This document shows, in pieces, positions 3,475 through 36,120 of a stretch of DNA of 43,346 nucleotides. The stretch lies in the NCBI GenBank assembly GCA_031490115.1, contig GCA_031490115.1_4355.1. One strand, given 5' to 3'. The stretch's first letter is position 1. Each line of letters begins with the position of its first letter. The translations under genes and the position numbers were made by a program. This DNA comes from a phage. A model generated the notes under the pieces. It was not told where the DNA came from, ran no database searches, and saw only the letters and a program-made list of their open reading frames with translations.

Positions 3475-3500
3475 TCCTTATGTCTCGTTTCGATAAGTGA

Positions 3501-3529
3501 ATAGTATCCTATTATGTTGGGGTGTGCAA
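3501..3529 (-). promoter_or_regulatory. sigma70-like promoter (TTGCAC-N17-TACTAT), leftward
   Basis: -35 is the reverse complement of 3524-3529, -10 the reverse complement of 3501-3506, 17-nt spacer. Confidence 0.6.
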
Positions 3530-4114: not shown

Positions 4115-4342
4115 TTGGGCGTATGGGTTGTTACTTTGAAAACGGTAAAGTTAAATACGAACGGTAAAGTTAAATACGGGTTTAAGTTTGCGTCGGAAAT
4201 TACTGACAGCGGATTCTATGCGGAAATATGTAAGCCTAATAATTTGTCGGAACCTACGCGCATTATTAAGATGTCAGCAGACGTGTTAAGTAAATGCCGC
4301 TTCTATGATTCCGAGCACGCGTGGTTTTCTGGTTGTAAATAA
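4115..4342 (+). CDS. hypothetical protein (uncertain start)
   Basis: Six-frame ORF with a TTG start; the tandem repeat at 4141-4179 lies in its 5' end. Confidence 0.3.
   Translation: MGVWVVTLKTVKLNTNGKVKYGFKFASEITDSGFYAEICKPNNLSEPTRIIKMSADVLSKCRFYDSEHAWFSGCK
4141..4179. repeat. tandem direct repeat, two copies of AACGGTAAAGTTAAATACG
   Basis: 19-nt unit at 4141-4159, one base, then the unit again from 4161. Confidence 0.7.
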
Positions 4343-21660: not shown

Positions 21661-23058
21661 TTAACTGTCCACATTAAAATCAATACGGGTGATGTACTTG
21701 CTTCCCCACGCAGAGTCTGCTTGAGGGATGGCGGCGTAACCGTCAACAGACGGAACGTTTACCACAGAGCCGTCTGAATATGTAATATCAATGCTTGTTG
21801 CACCGTTCATTACTACTTTTGCCGATGCCGTCGTTCGGGTTACCGGTGACGATTCGGTTACTATTGGCGACGTGGCAAAAGGTGATTTTTCTATTTGCAT
21901 CGCGCACACTAATATCCCACTAACCCCGTCACCGACAAATGAACCAACGGCGGAGTTGTTGTACACCCGTGACGCTAAAACCAGAGAAGATGCGCCGCCC
22001 TGGCGTATAGCTACCGTTTCTGTAAATCGATACCAACCATCGCCAAGCTCTGCTATATCGCTGCCGGGGGCGCCCGCGTAAATACCCCCTGTCGATAAGT
22101 TAGCAACACAATCCGCGATAAACTTAGCATCACCAGAGGCGCGAAGTCTCGCATAATTATAACCATATGCCTTAGCAACGTAACTGAGAGTGTATACATC
22201 ACCCTCCGCAAAAGCGGAAGACACCGATTGATATACGAGATGGCTGCCGTTTGTCTGGTTCGGGACTAGCGAGAACGTACCACCGTTTAGAAATCCGTCA
22301 ACTGCATCCGACACTGTTGTTCTAACTTTAGTCCACGATGCGTCAGATAATTTCGACGATTTAATCAGGATATTACTGGACGCGGATTCCGGCGGAACAC
22401 GTCCAACAGCAACCCCATCAATAAACGTAAGAGGCCATTCATTAGCGGCGGACTGCACAAGATTGCCGTTGCGGTTGATGTAATAAACCTGCGGCGCGTC
22501 ATACACAATGCGGCTATCAAGAGTCGACGCCAGAAGGTTAATCGGTGGATACCCGGCAGGCCCTTCATTGCTCCAGATGCGCGGGAACGTTGTCTCATAG
22601 TTCGCGTATATTTTCAGGAAACTGCCCAGGCAATCACCATAACAGCCATACAAATCTGGCAGATTGTTAATCAGACACTGGTTCTCGAGGTCCTGGAACG
22701 GCGATTTCTCGGCGGTTGCCGTGAAAGTAATTGTCCAGTTAATCCCGTCTTCGGTGGACTCGGCGATAGTGGACGTAATGGTTACCTGGTAATCCTCAAT
22801 ACCCATGCCGAAGTCGTGCGCCATCCAGAAACTTGACGCGCCACCATCGACTTTCTCGAGGAACGACAGAAACGCCTGCCGTCCCAGTGCCGATGTAATC
22901 AGAGTTACGCTTATCGGAAACACGTCGTAATACGTGTCGCGGCCCTGACGCACCCCGCCGCCGGCTAAATCGACACTCCAGACGTTGTTACGTCTGGTCA
23001 TTGAGTAGCCTTTTGATACCACCGGCTTAAGGCTACGTGGGAAATATAATTCGGTCAT
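21661..23058 (-). CDS. distal tail / minor tail protein
   Basis: 465 aa, immediately after the tape measure protein. Confidence 0.45.
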   Translation of the reverse strand: MTELYFPRSLKPVVSKGYSMTRRNNVWSVDLAGGGVRQGRDTYYDVFPISVTLITSALGRQAFLSFLEKVDGGASSFWMAHDFGMGIEDYQVTITSTIAESTEDGINWTITFTATAEKSPFQDLENQCLINNLPDLYGCYGDCLGSFLKIYANYETTFPRIWSNEGPAGYPPINLLASTLDSRIVYDAPQVYYINRNGNLVQSAANEWPLTFIDGVAVGRVPPESASSNILIKSSKLSDASWTKVRTTVSDAVDGFLNGGTFSLVPNQTNGSHLVYQSVSSAFAEGDVYTLSYVAKAYGYNYARLRASGDAKFIADCVANLSTGGIYAGAPGSDIAELGDGWYRFTETVAIRQGGASSLVLASRVYNNSAVGSFVGDGVSGILVCAMQIEKSPFATSPIVTESSPVTRTTASAKVVMNGATSIDITYSDGSVVNVPSVDGYAAIPQADSAWGSKYITRIDFNVDS

Positions 23059-25346
23059 TATTTAAACCCCGGCGCATTTCTTGTGGCCTTGCGGGCCTTG
23101 CTAATCTTACTGTTACTGTTCTGCAAAGAGGCAGCCACTTGCTCCTCGATGATGATACGCAAACGGCCTTCATCATCTTGCTCAGTGGATACGTTGCCGA
23201 TTTGAGAACTCGTGTTGTTTACGATAGTAACATTAGACGGTCCGGAAGAAGACCCGTTTTGCCCCATAATTTCTTTCATCTGCTGTGCGGTGCGTACACG
23301 TGACGCACCAGCGGGCATGATAACTTCTGGTTTACCGCGTTCGGCGATGGTTGAAGCCTGCCCCGCGGATAACTGTCCGCCCTGTTCACGTGCGGACCTG
23401 ATAGCGGAAATCTGCGCCATACCCGCCCCAACGGCAGCAGCGGCAGCTACAGGAGCCAGGAACGGGCCAACTACAGGGATAGCCGCTGTTGACTTATACG
23501 CCTCAATAGCCGCGGTGTACGTGGCTATAGTGGCCTGCACGATAGCGAATGCCTTGTACGCGCCAGAAGCCTCGCCCAAAGCCGAACCGATGTTTGAGGC
23601 CATGTTACCGAAGGCCGTTGCCGTTGCGTCGGCACGCTTCGTGGCGTACTGCGCGTTGATGGCATTAAGCGCAGCCTGATACCGCTTCTCACTAATCAAA
23701 CCCTGCTCGCGGTACTTATCTGCTACCGACAGTTTCTGCTGTTCCTGGATGTCGAGAAGCTCAAGCTCAGTAGCGTTCTGACCCATAATCTGAGCCATGA
23801 AGTCGTCGCCTTTCTGCTGCTTTTCCTGGGCTTCTTTCTGGCGTTTATCCAGTTCATCTTGTCGTTTTTGCCCTGCTTCGAGGACAATAGCCGTTTTTGC
23901 TTGCTCGTATTCTTTCAGTGACAGCGCGCCCTGGCTGTAGAACTCTTTTGCTTTAGCCAGTTTCTGCTGTTCCTGAGCGTCAATAGCCTTTAACTCGTCG
24001 TTGTTCTGGCGGGCCAAAGTGTCGAGGTAATCTTGCGCCTGATTCCGCAATTGTTCTGCTTTCTTGGCGGCGGCTTTTGCCGCTTTATCGTCAGCGTTTC
24101 CGGTGCCGCCAGTTCCACCCTTTTTATTAACAAGGCTGGCTAAGTCAATTTCTTGCTTCTTGCGCTCGTCGTACTGCTTGCGCTGTTCCTCAATTTCTTT
24201 CTTACGCTGCTTAGACCGGTCAGTTATGGCCTGTGATTCGGCCTCTGCGCGTTTTATGCTGGCGGCGTACGCGGCGTCGGCCTCTGCGGTCAGGTTTTTA
24301 AAAGTGAGCGCTGCCGTTTTGCTCGGGTCAAACACGTCAGCAAGGGTCTGACCTAACGCTACGGCGTAATCGTCAATGCGCTGGAACCACGCAATAACCT
24401 CGTGGAATGTCTGCTGGATGTCAGGCAACCACTCTCGGATGGCGTCAGGGATAGTTCCCAGCGAGTCTGACATGTCCGCGGATTTGTCCTCGGTGTCGTA
24501 TGCCAGGTCGTTCAAAGCGTCAGAAATAAACTTGAACGACTCATTGAACAGTGTCGCCCAATCCTGGAGCGTGGCGGCTATCTCATTAGATGCGATGGCG
24601 TCGGTAAGCGCCGTCACTGCGTCTTCTGCCATCGCGGCTTGCTCACCTACGGCATCGCCAAAACCGGATTGTGCTACCGCAAGAACAAGACCATCGAAGG
24701 AGTCGGCGAGGCTCGACAACTGACCGTCTAAGGTCTTCGAACGCGTCTCCATCGCTCCGGCGAAATCTGTGTTACCGATGTTTAACAGGTATTTCTGAAT
24801 TTCTTCGGAGTTCTTTTTAACCGTGGTGGTAACACCGCGGAACGTGAAAGAAACTGTATCCGCCTGCTGTGACGACTTGATACCGAACTCTTTTAAGCGC
24901 TCAAACTCAAAGGTACTGGCGTCCGCCACCGCCTCAATCATTTGATTAAGGTCTTTACCCATAGCCGCCGCGGTGTTGCCGTAGGAAATCAGCGCCTCTT
25001 TGCTGGGGTTCAGACCGAGGGCTACAAGTTTAGTGAAGCCCTCGACCGCCTGATTTAGACCATACGGGGTTTCTTTTGCGAACTGTTGCAGGACGCTGAA
25101 AGCCTTAGCCGCGTTCTCTGCGCTTCCAGTCATTGTGATGAGGCCGGAATTCAGCTTATCGAAGTTGCGCTGGGAGTCCACCAGTGCGCTGAACACCCGC
25201 TTAGCGGTTTCCAGACTAACAACGGCAGCAGCGGCAGCGCCAGCCGCTTTGGTAAGGCCGTTCAGTTGCGATGTGGTTTTATCGACGCCGGTCGAGGATA
25301 CTCGTACTATCAAGCTAGCGGTATCAGCCATGATTTCTACCTTCAA
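23058..25346 (-). CDS. tail tape measure protein
   Basis: 762 aa, extensive Ala/Gln/Glu/Lys-rich coiled coil, placed after the G/T chaperone pair. Confidence 0.85.
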   Translation of the reverse strand: MKVEIMADTASLIVRVSSTGVDKTTSQLNGLTKAAGAAAAAVVSLETAKRVFSALVDSQRNFDKLNSGLITMTGSAENAAKAFSVLQQFAKETPYGLNQAVEGFTKLVALGLNPSKEALISYGNTAAAMGKDLNQMIEAVADASTFEFERLKEFGIKSSQQADTVSFTFRGVTTTVKKNSEEIQKYLLNIGNTDFAGAMETRSKTLDGQLSSLADSFDGLVLAVAQSGFGDAVGEQAAMAEDAVTALTDAIASNEIAATLQDWATLFNESFKFISDALNDLAYDTEDKSADMSDSLGTIPDAIREWLPDIQQTFHEVIAWFQRIDDYAVALGQTLADVFDPSKTAALTFKNLTAEADAAYAASIKRAEAESQAITDRSKQRKKEIEEQRKQYDERKKQEIDLASLVNKKGGTGGTGNADDKAAKAAAKKAEQLRNQAQDYLDTLARQNNDELKAIDAQEQQKLAKAKEFYSQGALSLKEYEQAKTAIVLEAGQKRQDELDKRQKEAQEKQQKGDDFMAQIMGQNATELELLDIQEQQKLSVADKYREQGLISEKRYQAALNAINAQYATKRADATATAFGNMASNIGSALGEASGAYKAFAIVQATIATYTAAIEAYKSTAAIPVVGPFLAPVAAAAAVGAGMAQISAIRSAREQGGQLSAGQASTIAERGKPEVIMPAGASRVRTAQQMKEIMGQNGSSSGPSNVTIVNNTSSQIGNVSTEQDDEGRLRIIIEEQVAASLQNSNSKISKARKATRNAPGFK

Positions 25347-25719
25347 AGATTGCTTCTAAGCCCATGATAATGTCTATCTCGAACAGGCTAAGCTGTTTTT
25401 GCGTAACATCGAGATAGGCTTTCAGGTCTTGCCACGTAACGGATTCTCTTGCGAACAATACTACAGCGTCCTCGCGCACGTGTCGCGTAAACTTAATGTC
25501 ACAGTACGTCTCAAAGGTGGATATAAAAAGGGGCGGGCATTCTGGCCCACCCCGTCGCGCTGCACGTTTTTTCTTATCGATTACACCCATCGCGATAAGC
25601 GCCTGTTCGTGTCCGTCAGCTATAGAATCAAACTCTCTGATTTTATGCTTATCCACAAACTCGTAGGTGGCGAACCTGTACAGCGCGTCTACTTTTCCTG
25701 TAATGCTTTGCGCTCGGCG
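25324..25719 (-). CDS. tail assembly chaperone T segment (candidate -1 frameshift extension of G)
   Basis: Reading frame open from 25719 and in the -1 frame relative to the G ORF; overlaps the last ~10 codons of G, where the mRNA reads CAG GAA AAG TAG. Confidence 0.5.
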   Translation of the reverse strand, partial: RRAQSITGKVDALYRFATYEFVDKHKIREFDSIADGHEQALIAMGVIDKKKRAARRGGPECPPLFISTFETYCDIKFTRHVREDAVVLFARESVTWQDLKAYLDVTQKQLSLFEIDIIMGLEAIFEGRNHG

Positions 25720-26108
25720 TTATGGAACGCTGCAACCTGGGTTCCAAGCCCTTTGAACTGGTCGAGCAATTTGTTAAACGCTTCCTTAGAGAAAGGCTCG
25801 TCGTCAAAGCTCCAGCCGTTTACGACTTCTGCCGCGAGTTGTCGGTTGAGGTCTTCCGCCAGTTCATTAACCGCCAGGTTATATTCAGTATAGTCGCCGG
25901 ATTCTTTGGCGGCTTTTTCCAGTTCTTCAAAACGCGCCAGCCCGCGGCGGTACGCGATAATGAAAGCACGCCCCGCTTTAACGGCGACATCGGCATCTGG
26001 ACTTACAACATTAAGCCACTCACCGGAGTCTTCGCCGTTTGGTAGCAGAATCGGCATCTTCTTGCCTACCAGTGCTTTCTCTTCGAAATAGAAATCAGAA
26101 AGTTTCAT
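25689..26108 (-). CDS. tail assembly chaperone (gpG-like)
   Basis: 139 aa, acidic, between major tail and tape measure genes. Confidence 0.6.
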   Translation of the reverse strand: MKLSDFYFEEKALVGKKMPILLPNGEDSGEWLNVVSPDADVAVKAGRAFIIAYRRGLARFEELEKAAKESGDYTEYNLAVNELAEDLNRQLAAEVVNGWSFDDEPFSKEAFNKLLDQFKGLGTQVAAFHNAERKALQEK

Positions 26109-26217
26109 TCTTTAATCCTTTGGTTAAGAGGTTACGGGTTAACGATAAATGCGCCAGACGGGAACCACCCGCTTTTCGTGTGCGACACTAGGCGCAAAAA
26201 TTATTCTACCACAATAC

Positions 26218-26246
26218 TTGCACACCCCAATATAATAGGGTACTAT
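26218..26246 (+). promoter_or_regulatory. sigma70-like promoter (TTGCAC-N17-TACTAT), rightward
   Basis: Same element as 35065-35093; 30 nt upstream of the Imm-like gene. Confidence 0.6.
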
Positions 26247-26276
26247 TCACTTACACCAACAATGGAGGGGTTTAAA

Positions 26277-26468
26277 ATGTCCAGTTTACCAGTTTCCTTA
26301 ATTCTGTTTGCACTGCTCGCTTATTTCGCGCCTTTCCTGGTTGCGTATTTCCGTAACCATAAAGCGAAATTAGCGATATTCATGGCTAATCTGTTTCTTG
26401 GATGGGTTCTGCTGCCGTGGGTATTTATTTTAATCTGGGCTTGCAACTCGAATGTCAAAGAGAAGTGA
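26277..26468 (+). CDS. superinfection immunity (Imm)-like small membrane protein
   Basis: 63 aa from the ATG behind GGAGGGG; YFAPFLVAYFRNHKAKLAIFMANLFLGWVLLPWVFILIWA fits the Imm-type two-TM pattern (YF.P...R.H...AIF..N.FLGW). Confidence 0.6.
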   Translation: MSSLPVSLILFALLAYFAPFLVAYFRNHKAKLAIFMANLFLGWVLLPWVFILIWACNSNVKEK

Positions 26469-26505
26469 GCTAGTATAGGACAAATCCTAAGCACGAGGAA
26501 TAAAC

Positions 26506-26787
26506 ATGGCCCGGAAGAAAATAACCGACGAACAGTTGCAGGAAGAATTGAACGCCGGTATGAAGAATGTAGATATCGCCCGTAAATACGGCATCTCAGA
26601 CCGCGTAATTCGTATCCGTAAAGCGAAGCTGGCTAAGAAAGGCGTGGGCCACGGGCGCGACGTTAGCCACCTTGTGCCAGACGGCTACAAGATTAAAGGA
26701 ACGTCGTCACTTGTGGACGAGTTCGGCAACACTAAGTTGCAATGGGTTAAGACTGATACCGACGCCGAACGTCGGGTTGAATTGTAG
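26506..26787 (+). CDS. putative HTH DNA-binding protein
   Basis: 93 aa; NVDIARKYGISDRVIRIRKAKL is HTH-like. Confidence 0.45.
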   Translation: MARKKITDEQLQEELNAGMKNVDIARKYGISDRVIRIRKAKLAKKGVGHGRDVSHLVPDGYKIKGTSSLVDEFGNTKLQWVKTDTDAERRVEL

Positions 26788-26798
26788 AAAGCCGTAAC

Positions 26799-26951
26799 AT
26801 GATTGTTGAGCAACACCGCACCTTAGCGGCTAAAGACGCCTACGCCTCTCGCGGCGGATGGATGTCGGGCCGCAGTGCAAATGTAATTACTTATAGCGCC
26901 GAATATGGCGAGGTCGCACGTTTAACTATTTCACCGGAGATGCTGGGATGA
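26799..26951 (+). CDS. hypothetical small protein (50 aa)
   Basis: ORF not in the six-frame list; TGA overlaps the ATG of the phosphatase gene. Confidence 0.3.
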   Translation: MIVEQHRTLAAKDAYASRGGWMSGRSANVITYSAEYGEVARLTISPEMLG

Positions 26952-27436
26952 AAGATATTGTAATTTTCGATTTAGACGGGACATTGGCTGACGGTACCCA
27001 TCGCTTACACCTGTTACCAAAAGATAACTACGGAGAAACGTGGGCGTGGAAGCCATTTAACATGGCCTGCAAAGATGACGCTCCGATATACGACAATATC
27101 CATTTGTGTAGCGTACTGTGGCATTCCGGACTTACTATAATTATCCTTACCGGGCGAAGTGATGACGCTGAGGAGGAGACTCGCGAATGGTTACGAGAGA
27201 ATAACGTTAGGTTTGACACGCTAATCATGCGCAGCAAACACGACAACAGAAAAGACATCGTAATTAAAGAAGAGGTGTTGCGTGCTTTCGGACTGGAAAG
27301 AATCTTGTGTGCGTTCGACGACTCTCCAGCGGTAATAAAGCATTTCCGTGACCTCGGCATAACCGCACACGCAGTTACCGAATACGACTGTAACGGGAAC
27401 TCTACACACTTAAAACCACACGGGAGCGATAAATAA
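26948..27436 (+). CDS. HAD-family phosphatase resembling the 3'-phosphatase domain of T4 polynucleotide kinase
   Basis: Motif I IVIFDLDGTLADG, motif II ILTGRSD, motif III DNRKDIVIKEEV and a C-terminal FDDS acidic motif parallel the T4 Pnk phosphatase domain. Confidence 0.65.
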   Translation: MKDIVIFDLDGTLADGTHRLHLLPKDNYGETWAWKPFNMACKDDAPIYDNIHLCSVLWHSGLTIIILTGRSDDAEEETREWLRENNVRFDTLIMRSKHDNRKDIVIKEEVLRAFGLERILCAFDDSPAVIKHFRDLGITAHAVTEYDCNGNSTHLKPHGSDK

Positions 27437-27990
27437 TGGCTAAGGTAATTATTCTTAATGGCCCCGCGGGTTGCGGGAAAGACACGCTTGCTATGGCGCT
27501 GGTAGAAATGGGCTTTGCGAAAGGAACTACCAGTTTCAAGAATCCAATGTTCAATATTGCTTTGGCAGCGTTAGGCCAGGATGCTTACCACGAATTTCTC
27601 GACGGCTACGACGACCGGGCGCGGAAAGAAAAACCCGAGGGTTTTCTTAATGGGTTGTCCCGCCGCCGGTTAATGATTGCCATTTCTGAGCAATTCATTA
27701 AACCGGTATTCGGCGATGATTATTTCGGTAAGTATCTTGCTGAAAACTTGCCTGACGGCGACGAAGTTTTTGTAGTGTCCGATGGTGGATTCGCCAGTGA
27801 AGTTGCCCCTATCGTCGCCGCGGGGCATGACGTGCGAATCGTCCGCCTCCATCGTGACGGCTATACGTTCATCTGCGATAGCCGTGGCTATCTGTACGAT
27901 ATTGATGGTGTAAAAGATTACGACACCTACATCATACCGGGTGACGTTAAATCGAACGTTATAGACATTGCTTTAAAATTAGGTTTGTAA
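27436..27990 (+). CDS. P-loop kinase, dNMP-kinase-like (T4 gene 1-like)
   Basis: Walker A GPAGCGKDT (the G...GKDT variant of T4 dNMP kinase), then SRRRLMIAISEQ and VVSDGGFASE blocks. Confidence 0.55.
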   Translation: MAKVIILNGPAGCGKDTLAMALVEMGFAKGTTSFKNPMFNIALAALGQDAYHEFLDGYDDRARKEKPEGFLNGLSRRRLMIAISEQFIKPVFGDDYFGKYLAENLPDGDEVFVVSDGGFASEVAPIVAAGHDVRIVRLHRDGYTFICDSRGYLYDIDGVKDYDTYIIPGDVKSNVIDIALKLGL

Positions 27991-27994
27991 GAAA

Positions 27995-28020
27995 AAGGCC
28001 CCGAAAGGGGCCTTAGTTTT
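27995..28020. terminator. bidirectional terminator
   Basis: GGCCCC-gaaa-GGGGCC followed by TTAGTTTT; overlaps the major tail gene stop. Confidence 0.65.
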
Positions 28021-29191
28021 ATGCGTAGGTGATACGTTGAATTACGATAGACGACTGGTACTGATTGCCGGTAGCCTGGCCTTCAATGGACTGAGTGATT
28101 GACTCAGGCCCACCAATCTCTGGTGTTACTGCTGTAAGCTCTGCGCGTTTCAAACTGAAAGACATCGCCCCGTTTACCCCAGCCAGAATAGAGTTAATCT
28201 CTACCTGCTGCTCGTTGATAAACTTCTGAATCATAGCCATGTCGTACAGCTTGCCGGAGATGGAGAAGGTGTTAGCCGCGCGGCTACGTTCCACAAACGC
28301 TACGTTAGTGTTGCCGAGTTCGAACTGTGCGGACGCGCTGTTGTCGTTGGTGATGGTAAGGCTATCGCAACGCAACGGGGTAGAACCGTCGAACACGGAA
28401 ACGTCAACCGAAGAGAACGGCTCATCACCAAAAGTAACAGATGAGAAGTTGGAACCGGTCGGCCGCGTAGTGAGAATCTCCTGACTGCGACCGATGAATG
28501 GGAAGCTGCCAGTTACCATCGCGTTAACAGCCTGTTCGATGGTAAAACCAGAAACTTCCACGCCTTTGGTTAACGTGTACGCGTCAGTACCGCCGCACTG
28601 GCCTTTGTACCAGGTAAGGATAGAGAACGTCTTACACGTGTTACCAGTTTCCAGCTTGTCGCCGGTTTTAGCCTTACTAGTTTTTGTCTCGGGGGTCAGG
28701 GTGTGTTGGATGCCCGCACCAGTAACAACCGTAGCCGTCACTGCAGTAACAATAAATGGTTTTGCGTTATCGCCTGTTAAATCGGTAAATGCAATCAGGT
28801 CGCCTATCTCAACTCCGTCAGTGATAAAACTGCCGGTAGCGCGTGTGAACGTCTTGCCTGCAGGCGCGACGGTAATTGATAGCTTGGTCAGAGAACTACC
28901 GGATCGCCATGTAGAGCCTAAAGCACCCGCCAGCCAGTCGTCCTGGCTTTTCGAGCTAAGCTCAATAGCGTATTCTCCGCTAACCTGCTTGTTACCGGTG
29001 CGGATTGACGTAGTTTCACGGCTGCCGTCCAGTTCGTTGGAGGTCAGCGTGTCGCGGGTAATGGCAGGAACGCCACCTGTGTTACGCAATGGCGACCAGA
29101 CCGGGTTAGTCGGTGTTACGCCAGGGGTAGTTTCTGCCACATAGAATTGCGCAGTATTCGCGCCCTTAAAAGGAGTTGTAGCCATATTCAC
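28019..29191 (-). CDS. major tail protein
   Basis: 390 aa, directly upstream (in operon order) of the G/T chaperones and tape measure. Confidence 0.65.
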   Translation of the reverse strand: MNMATTPFKGANTAQFYVAETTPGVTPTNPVWSPLRNTGGVPAITRDTLTSNELDGSRETTSIRTGNKQVSGEYAIELSSKSQDDWLAGALGSTWRSGSSLTKLSITVAPAGKTFTRATGSFITDGVEIGDLIAFTDLTGDNAKPFIVTAVTATVVTGAGIQHTLTPETKTSKAKTGDKLETGNTCKTFSILTWYKGQCGGTDAYTLTKGVEVSGFTIEQAVNAMVTGSFPFIGRSQEILTTRPTGSNFSSVTFGDEPFSSVDVSVFDGSTPLRCDSLTITNDNSASAQFELGNTNVAFVERSRAANTFSISGKLYDMAMIQKFINEQQVEINSILAGVNGAMSFSLKRAELTAVTPEIGGPESITQSIEGQATGNQYQSSIVIQRITYA

Positions 29192-34998: not shown

Positions 34999-35064
34999 CT
35001 ATTCGAATAGTTTATTCCAACATTTACAATTCGGTGGAATAACTGGAATACGTAAATAAATAGT

Positions 35065-35093
35065 TTGCACACCCCAATATAATAGGGTACTAT
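35065..35093 (+). promoter_or_regulatory. sigma70-like promoter (TTGCAC-N17-TACTAT), rightward
   Basis: A 28/29-nt match to the promoter at 26218-26246. Confidence 0.6.
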
Positions 35094-35120
35094 TCATTCT
35101 ATCGAACCGAGGAGGCCGTC

Positions 35121-35174
35121 ATGTTAGTCGTTATTTCAGTAGTAATTGCAGTTGATGCGGTGATGTTTCTTTAG
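35121..35174 (+). CDS. 17-aa hydrophobic mini-ORF (leader peptide candidate)
   Basis: GAGGAGG 6 nt upstream of ATG; MLVVISVVIAVDAVMFL. Confidence 0.25.
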   Translation: MLVVISVVIAVDAVMFL

Positions 35175-35218
35175 GCTTGTAGTGGTATTGGTGAAATTGA
35201 CACGGGTAATGGTGAACT

Positions 35219-35563
35219 ATGAAATATATTAAATTAGCAGTAGCGGGTGTTGTAGCCGTCTGTTTGAGTGGTTGCGTAAGGTCGTTGCCAGACCCAGCTT
35301 TACAGGTTTATCAGGCGGGGGATACAACGGCAACATGTAATCAGTTACTATCGAGAATCGCCACGACAAAACAAGCTCAAGCCAACGCTACGCACCGTGT
35401 TAATAAGCAAATAGGTACTAACGTTGTACTCGGTGTTACAGGCGCATTCCTGATTGTTCCGCTGTTCTTTATGGACACAGGCGCTGGGCCTTCTATGGAC
35501 GAGATGGCAGCCGGTAATCGTCTGTCGCAGTTACAACAAACATACGACGAGAAATGCAAATGA
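35219..35563 (+). CDS. lipoprotein (superinfection-exclusion candidate)
   Basis: Signal peptide with lipobox LSGC, plus a C-proximal hydrophobic segment; own promoter and terminator; opposite strand to the surrounding structural genes. Confidence 0.55.
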   Translation: MKYIKLAVAGVVAVCLSGCVRSLPDPALQVYQAGDTTATCNQLLSRIATTKQAQANATHRVNKQIGTNVVLGVTGAFLIVPLFFMDTGAGPSMDEMAAGNRLSQLQQTYDEKCK

Positions 35564-35631
35564 CAAATAGTGTGATGTTTTATGTTGTTTTGTGGGTATC
35601 GGCTGCGGTTATCACCGCGATGTTCATATAA
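35560..35631 (+). CDS. 23-aa hydrophobic peptide
   Basis: ATGA-coupled to the lipoprotein gene. Confidence 0.25.
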   Translation: MTNSVMFYVVLWVSAAVITAMFI

Positions 35632-35635
35632 AAAT

Positions 35636-35658
35636 AAAGCCCCGTAAGGGGCCTTTTA
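35636..35658. terminator. bidirectional terminator
   Basis: AGCCCC-gtaa-GGGGC followed by CTTTT. Confidence 0.6.
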
Positions 35659-36120
35659 TCATTCTGGCTTAGTTACCTTCGCCGCTTTACTGACGGCCTC
35701 TACCCCATCGGCATCAGTAACTTTAACGAAGTATTCGCCGACCGCATTAACCGTCAGAGACAGAGCCTCCTCAGGCGCATTCACCACTTCCTTACCGTCT
35801 TTGTACCAGGTCAGAGAATACGGCGCTTTGCCTGCCTTAACCTCGACAGTGATGGTTGCGCTGCCGCCCGCCAGTTCAGCGTCCTGCGGTTGCGCGGAGA
35901 AATACACGTCGCCAGCGTCCGCCAGATACGGAATTTCATAAAGCATACTGGCGGCGGGCAACGCAATACCGGTTTTATCTGCAAACGGCATATCATCTAC
36001 CGGTGTACCGAGTACACTTTCGTCCCCAATAAATACCACGTTCTCGCCAGAGCCAGACACGCGGGCGTACTGGACTACGCGACGAGACGGTACGTCAGTT
36101 ACTTTGAAAAAGCCCATCAT
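35659..36120 (-). CDS. Ig-like domain structural protein
   Basis: 153 aa; YSLTWYKDGKEV...GEYFVKVTDADG is an Ig I-set-like motif shared with the 31701-32042 product. Confidence 0.5.
   Translation of the reverse strand: MMGFFKVTDVPSRRVVQYARVSGSGENVVFIGDESVLGTPVDDMPFADKTGIALPAASMLYEIPYLADAGDVYFSAQPQDAELAGGSATITVEVKAGKAPYSLTWYKDGKEVVNAPEEALSLTVNAVGEYFVKVTDADGVEAVSKAAKVTKPE

Follow-up and report, generated by a model that had tools for sequence, protein, structure and literature searches.

Two adjacent genes of a phage contig (GCA_031490115.1_4355.1; its whole 43.3-kb length was analysed and is called the window here) encode a HAD phosphatase and a P-loop kinase, and are the rear two genes of a conserved, mobile cassette in which a metallophosphoesterase (MPE) with a helix-turn-helix (HTH) domain is followed by the phosphatase and then by the kinase. 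The window is the genome of a Kagunavirus-like (Guernseyvirinae) virulent siphophage, and a deletion has broken its copy of the first cassette gene. An initial annotation of this DNA had correctly located both open reading frames, which lie on the + strand, and had preferred to read the pair as a split polynucleotide kinase, but it overlooked the upstream MPE remnants and the three-gene context. The reading favoured here, which has about an even chance of being right, is that the cassette is an early-expressed nucleotide-supply module, feeding phage deoxynucleoside triphosphates (dNTPs) from the breakdown of host nucleic acids.

The first of the two genes encodes a standalone phosphatase that carries the HAD motifs of the T4 Pnkp phosphatase domain, in agreement with the initial annotation, as DLDGT, LTGR and DNRKDIVIKEE. 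It matches the Pfam family HAD_PNKP (PF25109) with an E-value of 3.3e-20 and 73.1 bits (gathering cut-off 27.6) over profile positions 2-140 of 143, it matches phrog_415 with an E-value of 3e-64, and the solved structures closest to it by sequence are those of the RNA-repair enzymes Pnkp1 (4xrp) and T4 Pnkp (5uj0, 1ltq). Its homologue in T4 PseT (Pnkp) is the C-terminal 3'-phosphatase domain, of the DxDxT type. In the alignment, D165, D167, R176, D187 and S211 of PseT correspond to D8, D10, R19, D44 and T68, while R213, D254, K258, D277 and D278 correspond to R70, D103, K107, D124 and D125, and T12 of the DxDxT motif is aligned as well. All mapped phosphatase residues are kept, with S211 present as a threonine, and they comprise the nucleophile, the general acid, the Mg2+ ligands and the phosphate-binding arginine, lysine and serine/threonine; the roles of D165, D167, S211, K258 and D278 have been described for PseT (PMC3592404). 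The T4 enzyme acts on the mononucleotide 3'-dTMP in addition to RNA ends (PMC3592404). The window phosphatase differs from PseT, which works with RNA ligase 1, in being a separate 162-aa protein of a distinct clade, PHROG 415 instead of 505, and in having no ligase partner; phages such as Krischvirus JK32 encode both the standalone protein and a full PseT. Comparison with relatives indicates purifying selection, with a ratio of nonsynonymous to synonymous substitution rates (dN/dS) of 0.06-0.07.

The second gene encodes a member of the large family of kinases related to T4 gp1, a deoxynucleoside monophosphate (dNMP) kinase, and not a Pnkp-type 5'-OH polynucleotide kinase. Its GPAGCGKDT P-loop is, as the initial annotation had recognised, that of the T4-type dNMP kinases, and the protein matches phrog_139 ('dNMP kinase') with an E-value of 1e-44, in the same profile region that is matched by T4 gp1 itself (E 1.8e-65). 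An AlphaFold model, for which an alignment of 44 homologues with 33-92% identity was used, has a pLDDT of 94.6, and the predicted fold is closest to the gp1 structure 1dek, with a GxxxxGKD P-loop. The family profile aligns with gp1 from the P-loop to a YDRE segment (hhalign, E 2.6e-5), viral structural neighbours in BFVD carry dNMP kinase names, and the gp1-like family comprises 9,945 cluster representatives at E <= 0.001. No Pfam match above the cut-off was found for the kinase, and searches of the PDB with the single sequence and with a profile returned generic P-loop matches without recovering 1dek; what ties the protein to gp1 is structure and the shared PHROG. The kinase domain of T4 PseT (residues 1-150) has no match anywhere in the window, and a 5'-OH kinase domain of the Pnkp type (Walker A with the general base Asp35, Arg38 and Arg126) was not found. 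It is the fold and the shared phrog_139, together with the missing counterpart of the PseT kinase domain, that assign the protein to the gp1-like family. Compared to T4 gp1 (1dek/1del), the window kinase is shorter (184 aa versus 241 aa) and devoid of gp1's insertions, and it is coupled to a phosphatase, which gp1 is not. Purifying selection is also evident here, with a dN/dS of 0.10-0.25 versus relatives.

Some homologues of the kinase may have unusual architectures. Judged by name and length, BFVD entry A0A6J5RPH7 (297 aa, named nucleoside 2-deoxyribosyltransferase) may be a kinase fusion, and A0A7S6HV70 from Escherichia phage JEP1, a 518-aa kinase homologue with the UniProt name DOD-type homing-endonuclease-domain-containing, may represent a homing-endonuclease insertion into a kinase gene.

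Upstream of the pair, the MPE gene persists in the form of two fragments. An intact 376-aa HTH-MPE precedes the phosphatase gene in every close relative; the N-terminal remnant of the window aligns with residues 1-93 of this protein, and the C-terminal remnant matches the final 50 residues of the SHAK7858 MPE at 100% identity. In phage vB_EcoS-22664BS2 two copies of a 17-bp repeat lie 685 bp apart, and the window has a single copy. The loss of these 685 bp removes all five MPE motifs, shifts the frame and creates, at the junction, the TAG codon that ends the 93-aa reading frame. The motifs (DxH, GDxxH/D, GNHD/E, H and GHxH) are invariant in nine relatives, where they are formed by D130/H132, G178/D179/H182, G235/N236/H237, H282/H284 and G314/H315/H317, and they are absent from the window. 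The N-terminal part of the intact protein is a LuxR/GerE-like HTH; the Pfam matches of the intact protein are weak (21.7 and 18.8 bits, below the cut-off), and a profile search of the PDB recovered the HTH only, with no sequence match to solved metallophosphoesterases.

The deletion appears to be peculiar to this phage. Among 50,697 phage records searched, none of the 143 matching ones spans the junction, yet a Logan assembly of SRR24751124 (SRR24751124_76) runs through it with 100% identity along 3,568 bp. This agreement makes an assembly artefact unlikely, although the independent assembly may derive from the same sample. Identity to SHAK7858 and vB_EcoS-22664BS2 is 84-92% to the left of the junction (26005-26796) and 99.0-99.6% to the right (26781-28100), thus the junction is a mosaic boundary and the deletion may have arisen in recombination between diverged phages.

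The three-gene arrangement recurs in many other phages. When viral loci were seeded with the phosphatase, the kinase was found downstream on the same strand in 68 out of 80, and 32 of those 68 also have the MPE; when they were seeded with the kinase, at 44% identity or above, the phosphatase lies upstream in all except a single degenerate locus (L029). The Kagunavirus and Drexlerviridae homologues (the 'putative kinase-phosphatase' of K1G, TE1_016-018 of fTaEco01 and gp36-38 of Klebsiella phage Snyder) have the same genes in the same order, with identities of 90-99% to the Kagunavirus copies and 40-60% to the T1-like ones, but they keep an intact MPE gene, which the window does not. In Klebsiella Webervirus the full trio stands at the end of a DNA-metabolism operon, in Aeromonas phage Ahp1 (Autographiviridae) it follows exonuclease and endonuclease genes and includes a divergent HTH-MPE, and on a 60.8-kb contig (L174) a phosphatase-kinase fusion is followed by the MPE. 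Downstream of the cassette on the latter contig (8647-10436) come a PAPS-reductase-like gene and one for a Dam-type methyltransferase, a DNA-modification neighbourhood. The degenerate locus, from a T1-like phage (IMGVR_UViG_2974667180_000001, 3938-4615), has no phosphatase gene, unlike its relative L028, and its kinase gene has an in-frame stop at 4220-4222, which may reflect either a joint loss of the two genes or a sequencing error.

The cassette resembles two known repair systems without being identical to either of them. Similarly to bacterial Pnkp-Hen1, which unites a kinase, an MPE phosphatase and a ligase, its intact versions pair a calcineurin-type MPE with a P-loop kinase; however, the parts are separate genes, there is neither a ligase nor Hen1 (no Hen1-like gene is annotated in relatives), and the MPE, which is deleted in the window, bears a LuxR/GerE-like HTH. 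Mammalian PNKP, composed of FHA, phosphatase and kinase domains, has the same phosphatase-then-kinase order, which P0274 and P0330, two fused phage proteins, also retain. The kinase of the mammalian enzyme has DNA 5'-OH ends as its substrate and belongs to the T4 Pnkp type, whereas the phage kinase is gp1-like.

Within the window, the cassette occupies a short + strand island (26178-27990) enclosed by tail genes on the - strand (Table 1). The phosphatase and kinase genes share one base (TAATG, 27434-27438) downstream of a GGGAG ribosome-binding site; each gene has such a site, and their translational coupling is intact. A 30-mer, GCACACCCCAATATAATAGGGTACTATTCA, occurs in three copies in the window, at 3498-3527 (-), 26220-26249 (+) and 35067-35096 (+), where none would be expected by chance. 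Each copy stands before a transcription unit distinct from those of the late structural genes: the first heads a leftward cluster of small genes, the second lies in the promoter-like element in front of the island, and the third heads a separate + strand reading frame. The element probably represents an early-promoter family of the phage. In a terminator scan the hairpin AAGGCCCCGAAAGGGGCCTT at the other end of the island scored on both strands. With its own putative early-type promoter and probable terminator, the island is probably transcribed by itself, apart from the tail genes, and its expression would be early.

Table 1. Features of the cassette, its island and the adjoining tail genes
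Feature	Coordinates	Strand	Basis or remark
Tape measure gene	23058-25346	-	Neighbour of the island
Chaperone gene	25689-26108	-	Neighbour of the island
Promoter-like element, TTGCAC-N17-TACTAT, overlapping a perfect TATAAT	26218-26249	+	Upstream of the island, just before imm
Superinfection immunity gene (T4 Imm-like), 63 aa	26277-26468	+	First gene of the island; PF14373, phrog_1039
MPE N-terminal remnant, 93 aa, HTH domain	26506-26787	+	phrog_704 positions 2-106 of 390
Deletion junction, one hybrid copy of the imperfect 17-bp direct repeat ATTG[AT/TA]GAAAGCCGTAA	26781-26797	+	
MPE C-terminal remnant, 50 aa, now in another frame	26799-26951	+	phrog_704 positions 341-389
Standalone HAD (DxDxT) phosphatase of the PNKP 3'-phosphatase family, 162 aa	26948-27436	+	PF25109, phrog_415, alignment with PseT
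T4 gp1-type P-loop (d)NMP kinase homologue, 184 aa	27436-27990	+	GPAGCGKDT P-loop, phrog_139, fold
G+C-rich hairpin AAGGCCCCGAAAGGGGCCTT, probable two-way terminator	27995-28014		Between the convergent stop codons of the kinase and tail tube genes
Tail tube gene	28019-29191	-	Neighbour of the island, convergent with the kinase gene

The 2-kb region around the phosphatase and kinase genes is 90-97% identical to those of the E. coli phages vB_EcoS-22664BS2, SHAK7858, K1G and others, and most of the window is collinear with phage EF2-1, whose annotation is complete. At the front of the island stands a gene for an Imm-like superinfection immunity protein of the T4 kind (Imm_superinfect, PF14373, E 1.7e-12; phrog_1039, E 1.6e-24). 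This gene probably begins at the ATG at 26277, which is served by the ribosome-binding site GGAGGGG, as the start of the longest reading frame (26178, GTG) is too far upstream, and the identical Logan contig also carries a called 63-aa gene. A second opposite-strand island (35050-35661), with no aligned counterpart in EF2-1, lies between the spanin and Hoc-like head-decoration genes; it holds a reading frame (35219-35563, +) for a 114-aa protein of phrog_13472 and has the same promoter element. The position of the kinase gene is echoed by T4 gene 1 (dNMP kinase; locus L088, 2650-3375), which likewise has late genes for tail and chaperone proteins (57A and gene 3) around it. Finally, the GenBank taxonomy line of the SHAK7858 record (OR594183.1, vB_EcoM_SHAK7858; locus L001) reads Autographiviridae, Kayfunavirus, and the record is probably mislabelled, since both the sequence and the arrangement of genes identify a Kagunavirus siphophage.

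As for function, the family memberships, catalytic residues, predicted fold, cassette conservation and deletion are observed here, and from them we infer the substrates of the enzymes, the order of their steps and the early timing. In intact relatives, the DNA-binding MPE would degrade or trim DNA, the phosphatase would remove 3'-phosphates from 3'-phosphorylated mononucleotides or blocked 3' ends by way of an acyl-phosphate on Asp8, the kinase would use ATP to turn 5'-dNMPs into diphosphates, and the host nucleoside diphosphate kinase would complete the route to dNTPs. As the MPE has been lost to the repeat-mediated deletion of 685 bp, the phosphatase and the kinase, which are coupled in translation, are the only cassette enzymes left to act in this phage. 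The initial annotation had mentioned a nucleotide phosphatase/kinase pair as its alternative, and it is this alternative that proves better supported. The support comes from gene neighbourhoods and fusions. In Krischvirus JK32 the phrog_415 phosphatase gene follows directly after nrdA-nrdB, overlapping the end of nrdB, in a genome that also encodes a full PseT and RnlA; in Drulisvirus it has exonuclease and endonuclease VII genes on one side and, on the other, a gene for a PF18909 dATP/dGTP diphosphohydrolase. Members of the kinase family are fused to dUTPase inside a replication module, one may be fused to nucleoside 2-deoxyribosyltransferase, and distant ones are placed among FEN, RuvC and glutaredoxin genes. 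The nucleotide reading is favoured because the phosphatase clade adjoins nrdAB, in phages that have PseT and RnlA anyway, or the diphosphohydrolase gene, and because the kinase can be fused to dUTPase.

Several points weigh against a role in nucleotide supply. Phosphatases of the PNKP type are classically end-healing enzymes of polynucleotides, a source of 3'-phosphorylated deoxynucleotides in E. coli is hard to name, and a nucleotidase combined with a nucleotide kinase might end in a futile cycle if the two enzymes shared substrates. The phosphatase-kinase fusions and the HTH of the MPE equally fit an enzyme that acts on nucleic-acid ends. The kinase is only ~21% identical to gp1, and due to this low identity its specificity cannot be read from homology. 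The nuclease role of the MPE is deduced from its family label and from an HHpred remark that a GenBank entry carries, and its structural model, with input limited to homologues at least 96% identical, is unusable (pLDDT 41.5). Furthermore, a full-text literature search found no experimental work on the pair or the trio; one paper lists dNMP kinases in DNA-modification clusters.

An unlikely but still live rival is true end healing of broken DNA or RNA, the 'split PNKP' of the initial annotation. According to this view, the phosphatase removes 3'-phosphates and a recruited gp1-like kinase phosphorylates 5'-OH ends, while the MPE of the relatives opens 2',3'-cyclic phosphates or trims ends, and the products are sealed by a ligase of the host, which for DNA nicks would be LigA. 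The phosphatase half of the proposal stands, since this protein is of the PNKP family, retains every mapped PseT phosphatase residue and has RNA-repair enzymes as its nearest solved relatives; the kinase half does not, since this protein is of the gp1 type and the PseT kinase domain goes unmatched. The three activities do parallel those of T4 Pnkp (phosphatase and kinase) and of bacterial Pnkp (MPE and kinase), the fusions have the domain order of mammalian PNKP, the MPE bears a DNA-binding HTH, and the Autographiviridae cassette comes after DNA exonuclease and endonuclease genes. It is this phosphatase ancestry, together with the fusions and the HTH, that keeps the rival alive.

Sealing, however, is a difficulty for end healing. 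The observation that the window has no ligase was borne out by tblastn searches with T4 RnlA, RnlB and the DNA ligase gp30 (best E 1.8), K.DG motifs occur in the window only in tail proteins, and no ligase is annotated in EF2-1 or found in the close relatives. The suggestion that the host would ligate healed RNA fails, as E. coli is not known to possess a ligase for RNA with 3'-OH/5'-P ends. RtcB directly joins 3'-P/5'-OH ends and hence requires ends that have not been healed, therefore healing in a phage with no ligase of its own would not restore the RNA. Two 3'-end-healing enzymes in one cassette would also be redundant, and the finding that Krischvirus keeps the phrog_415 phosphatase beside a complete PseT and RnlA argues that the standalone protein and PseT are not redundant with each other. 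A bolder version, in which the trio is a hitherto undescribed mobile system for processing nucleic-acid ends, with the dNMP-kinase fold re-used as a polynucleotide 5'-kinase, seems improbable.

To a like degree doubtful is a role in counter-defence or host takeover, in which the module would act on some small nucleotide that is not an ordinary dNMP; for example, it might remove a signalling or alarmone nucleotide that is cyclic or 3'-phosphorylated, or rebuild pools drained by dNTP-depleting defences. The island is moron-like, placed on the opposite strand inside the tail module with its own promoter and beside a superinfection-immunity gene, the cassette moves among unrelated phage families and genome positions, and metallophosphoesterases include cyclic-nucleotide phosphodiesterases. 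However, no result points to a candidate ligand, the HTH of the MPE suggests DNA instead of a small molecule, and the neighbours found elsewhere (nrdAB, dNTP diphosphohydrolase and dUTPase) are ordinary enzymes of precursor metabolism. The three cassette proteins have no PADLOC match, although PADLOC models describe defence systems and not anti-defence proteins, and we know of no described anti-defence protein that resembles any of them.

Slightly less probable again is that the cassette is disabled in this genome, the loss of the MPE having broken the pathway and left the phosphatase and the kinase as recent passengers that have not yet decayed. The frameshifting deletion takes every MPE motif and is unique among the phage records searched, and the degenerate T1-like locus hints that parts can be lost together. 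On the other hand, 36 of the 80 phosphatase-seeded loci have the phosphatase and the kinase with no MPE nearby, so the pair works without it. Moreover, both proteins are full length, with few differences from their nearest relatives, at variable positions, and the ribosome-binding sites and the coupling are undamaged. Decay of the kinase after the MPE loss was considered and rejected: its near-neutral dN/dS versus the closest relatives reflects only 2-5 substitutions at variable sites, and G147C also occurs in relatives with an intact MPE, which gives no sign of decay.

Two other candidates were discarded. A phage-borne defence system found no support, as the phosphatase, the kinase, the intact MPE and the Imm-like protein gave no PADLOC matches at E 0.01. 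A role in DNA hypermodification, similar to that of the 5-hydroxymethyldeoxyuridine DNA kinase, was dismissed as well; this pathway requires a hydroxymethylase similar to thymidylate synthase, which the annotation of the close relative EF2-1 does not list.

To conclude, both gene families have already been annotated, inconsistently, in hundreds of phages, and the new elements are that the three genes are recognised as a trio, that the 'polynucleotide kinase' reading is corrected and that the MPE has undergone a natural deletion. The labels 'polynucleotide kinase', 'dNMP kinase' and 'ATP-binding protein' are in use in hundreds of genomes of coliphages and Klebsiella phages that are candidates for therapy, and the first of them implies T4-style RNA repair, which the evidence presented here does not support. 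The cassette moves between siphovirus and podovirus families, sometimes in fused form, and raises a question that is cheap to address biochemically, namely whether it acts on nucleotides or on nucleic-acid ends. If the trio did process ends, phages with no ligase (Kagunavirus, T1-like phages and some Autographiviridae) would repair nuclease-cut DNA or RNA via a host ligase. The phage described here is a natural mutant that lacks the first enzyme of the cassette, and the broader question is whether the cassette sets the supply for DNA synthesis in small virulent phages that have no ribonucleotide reductase.

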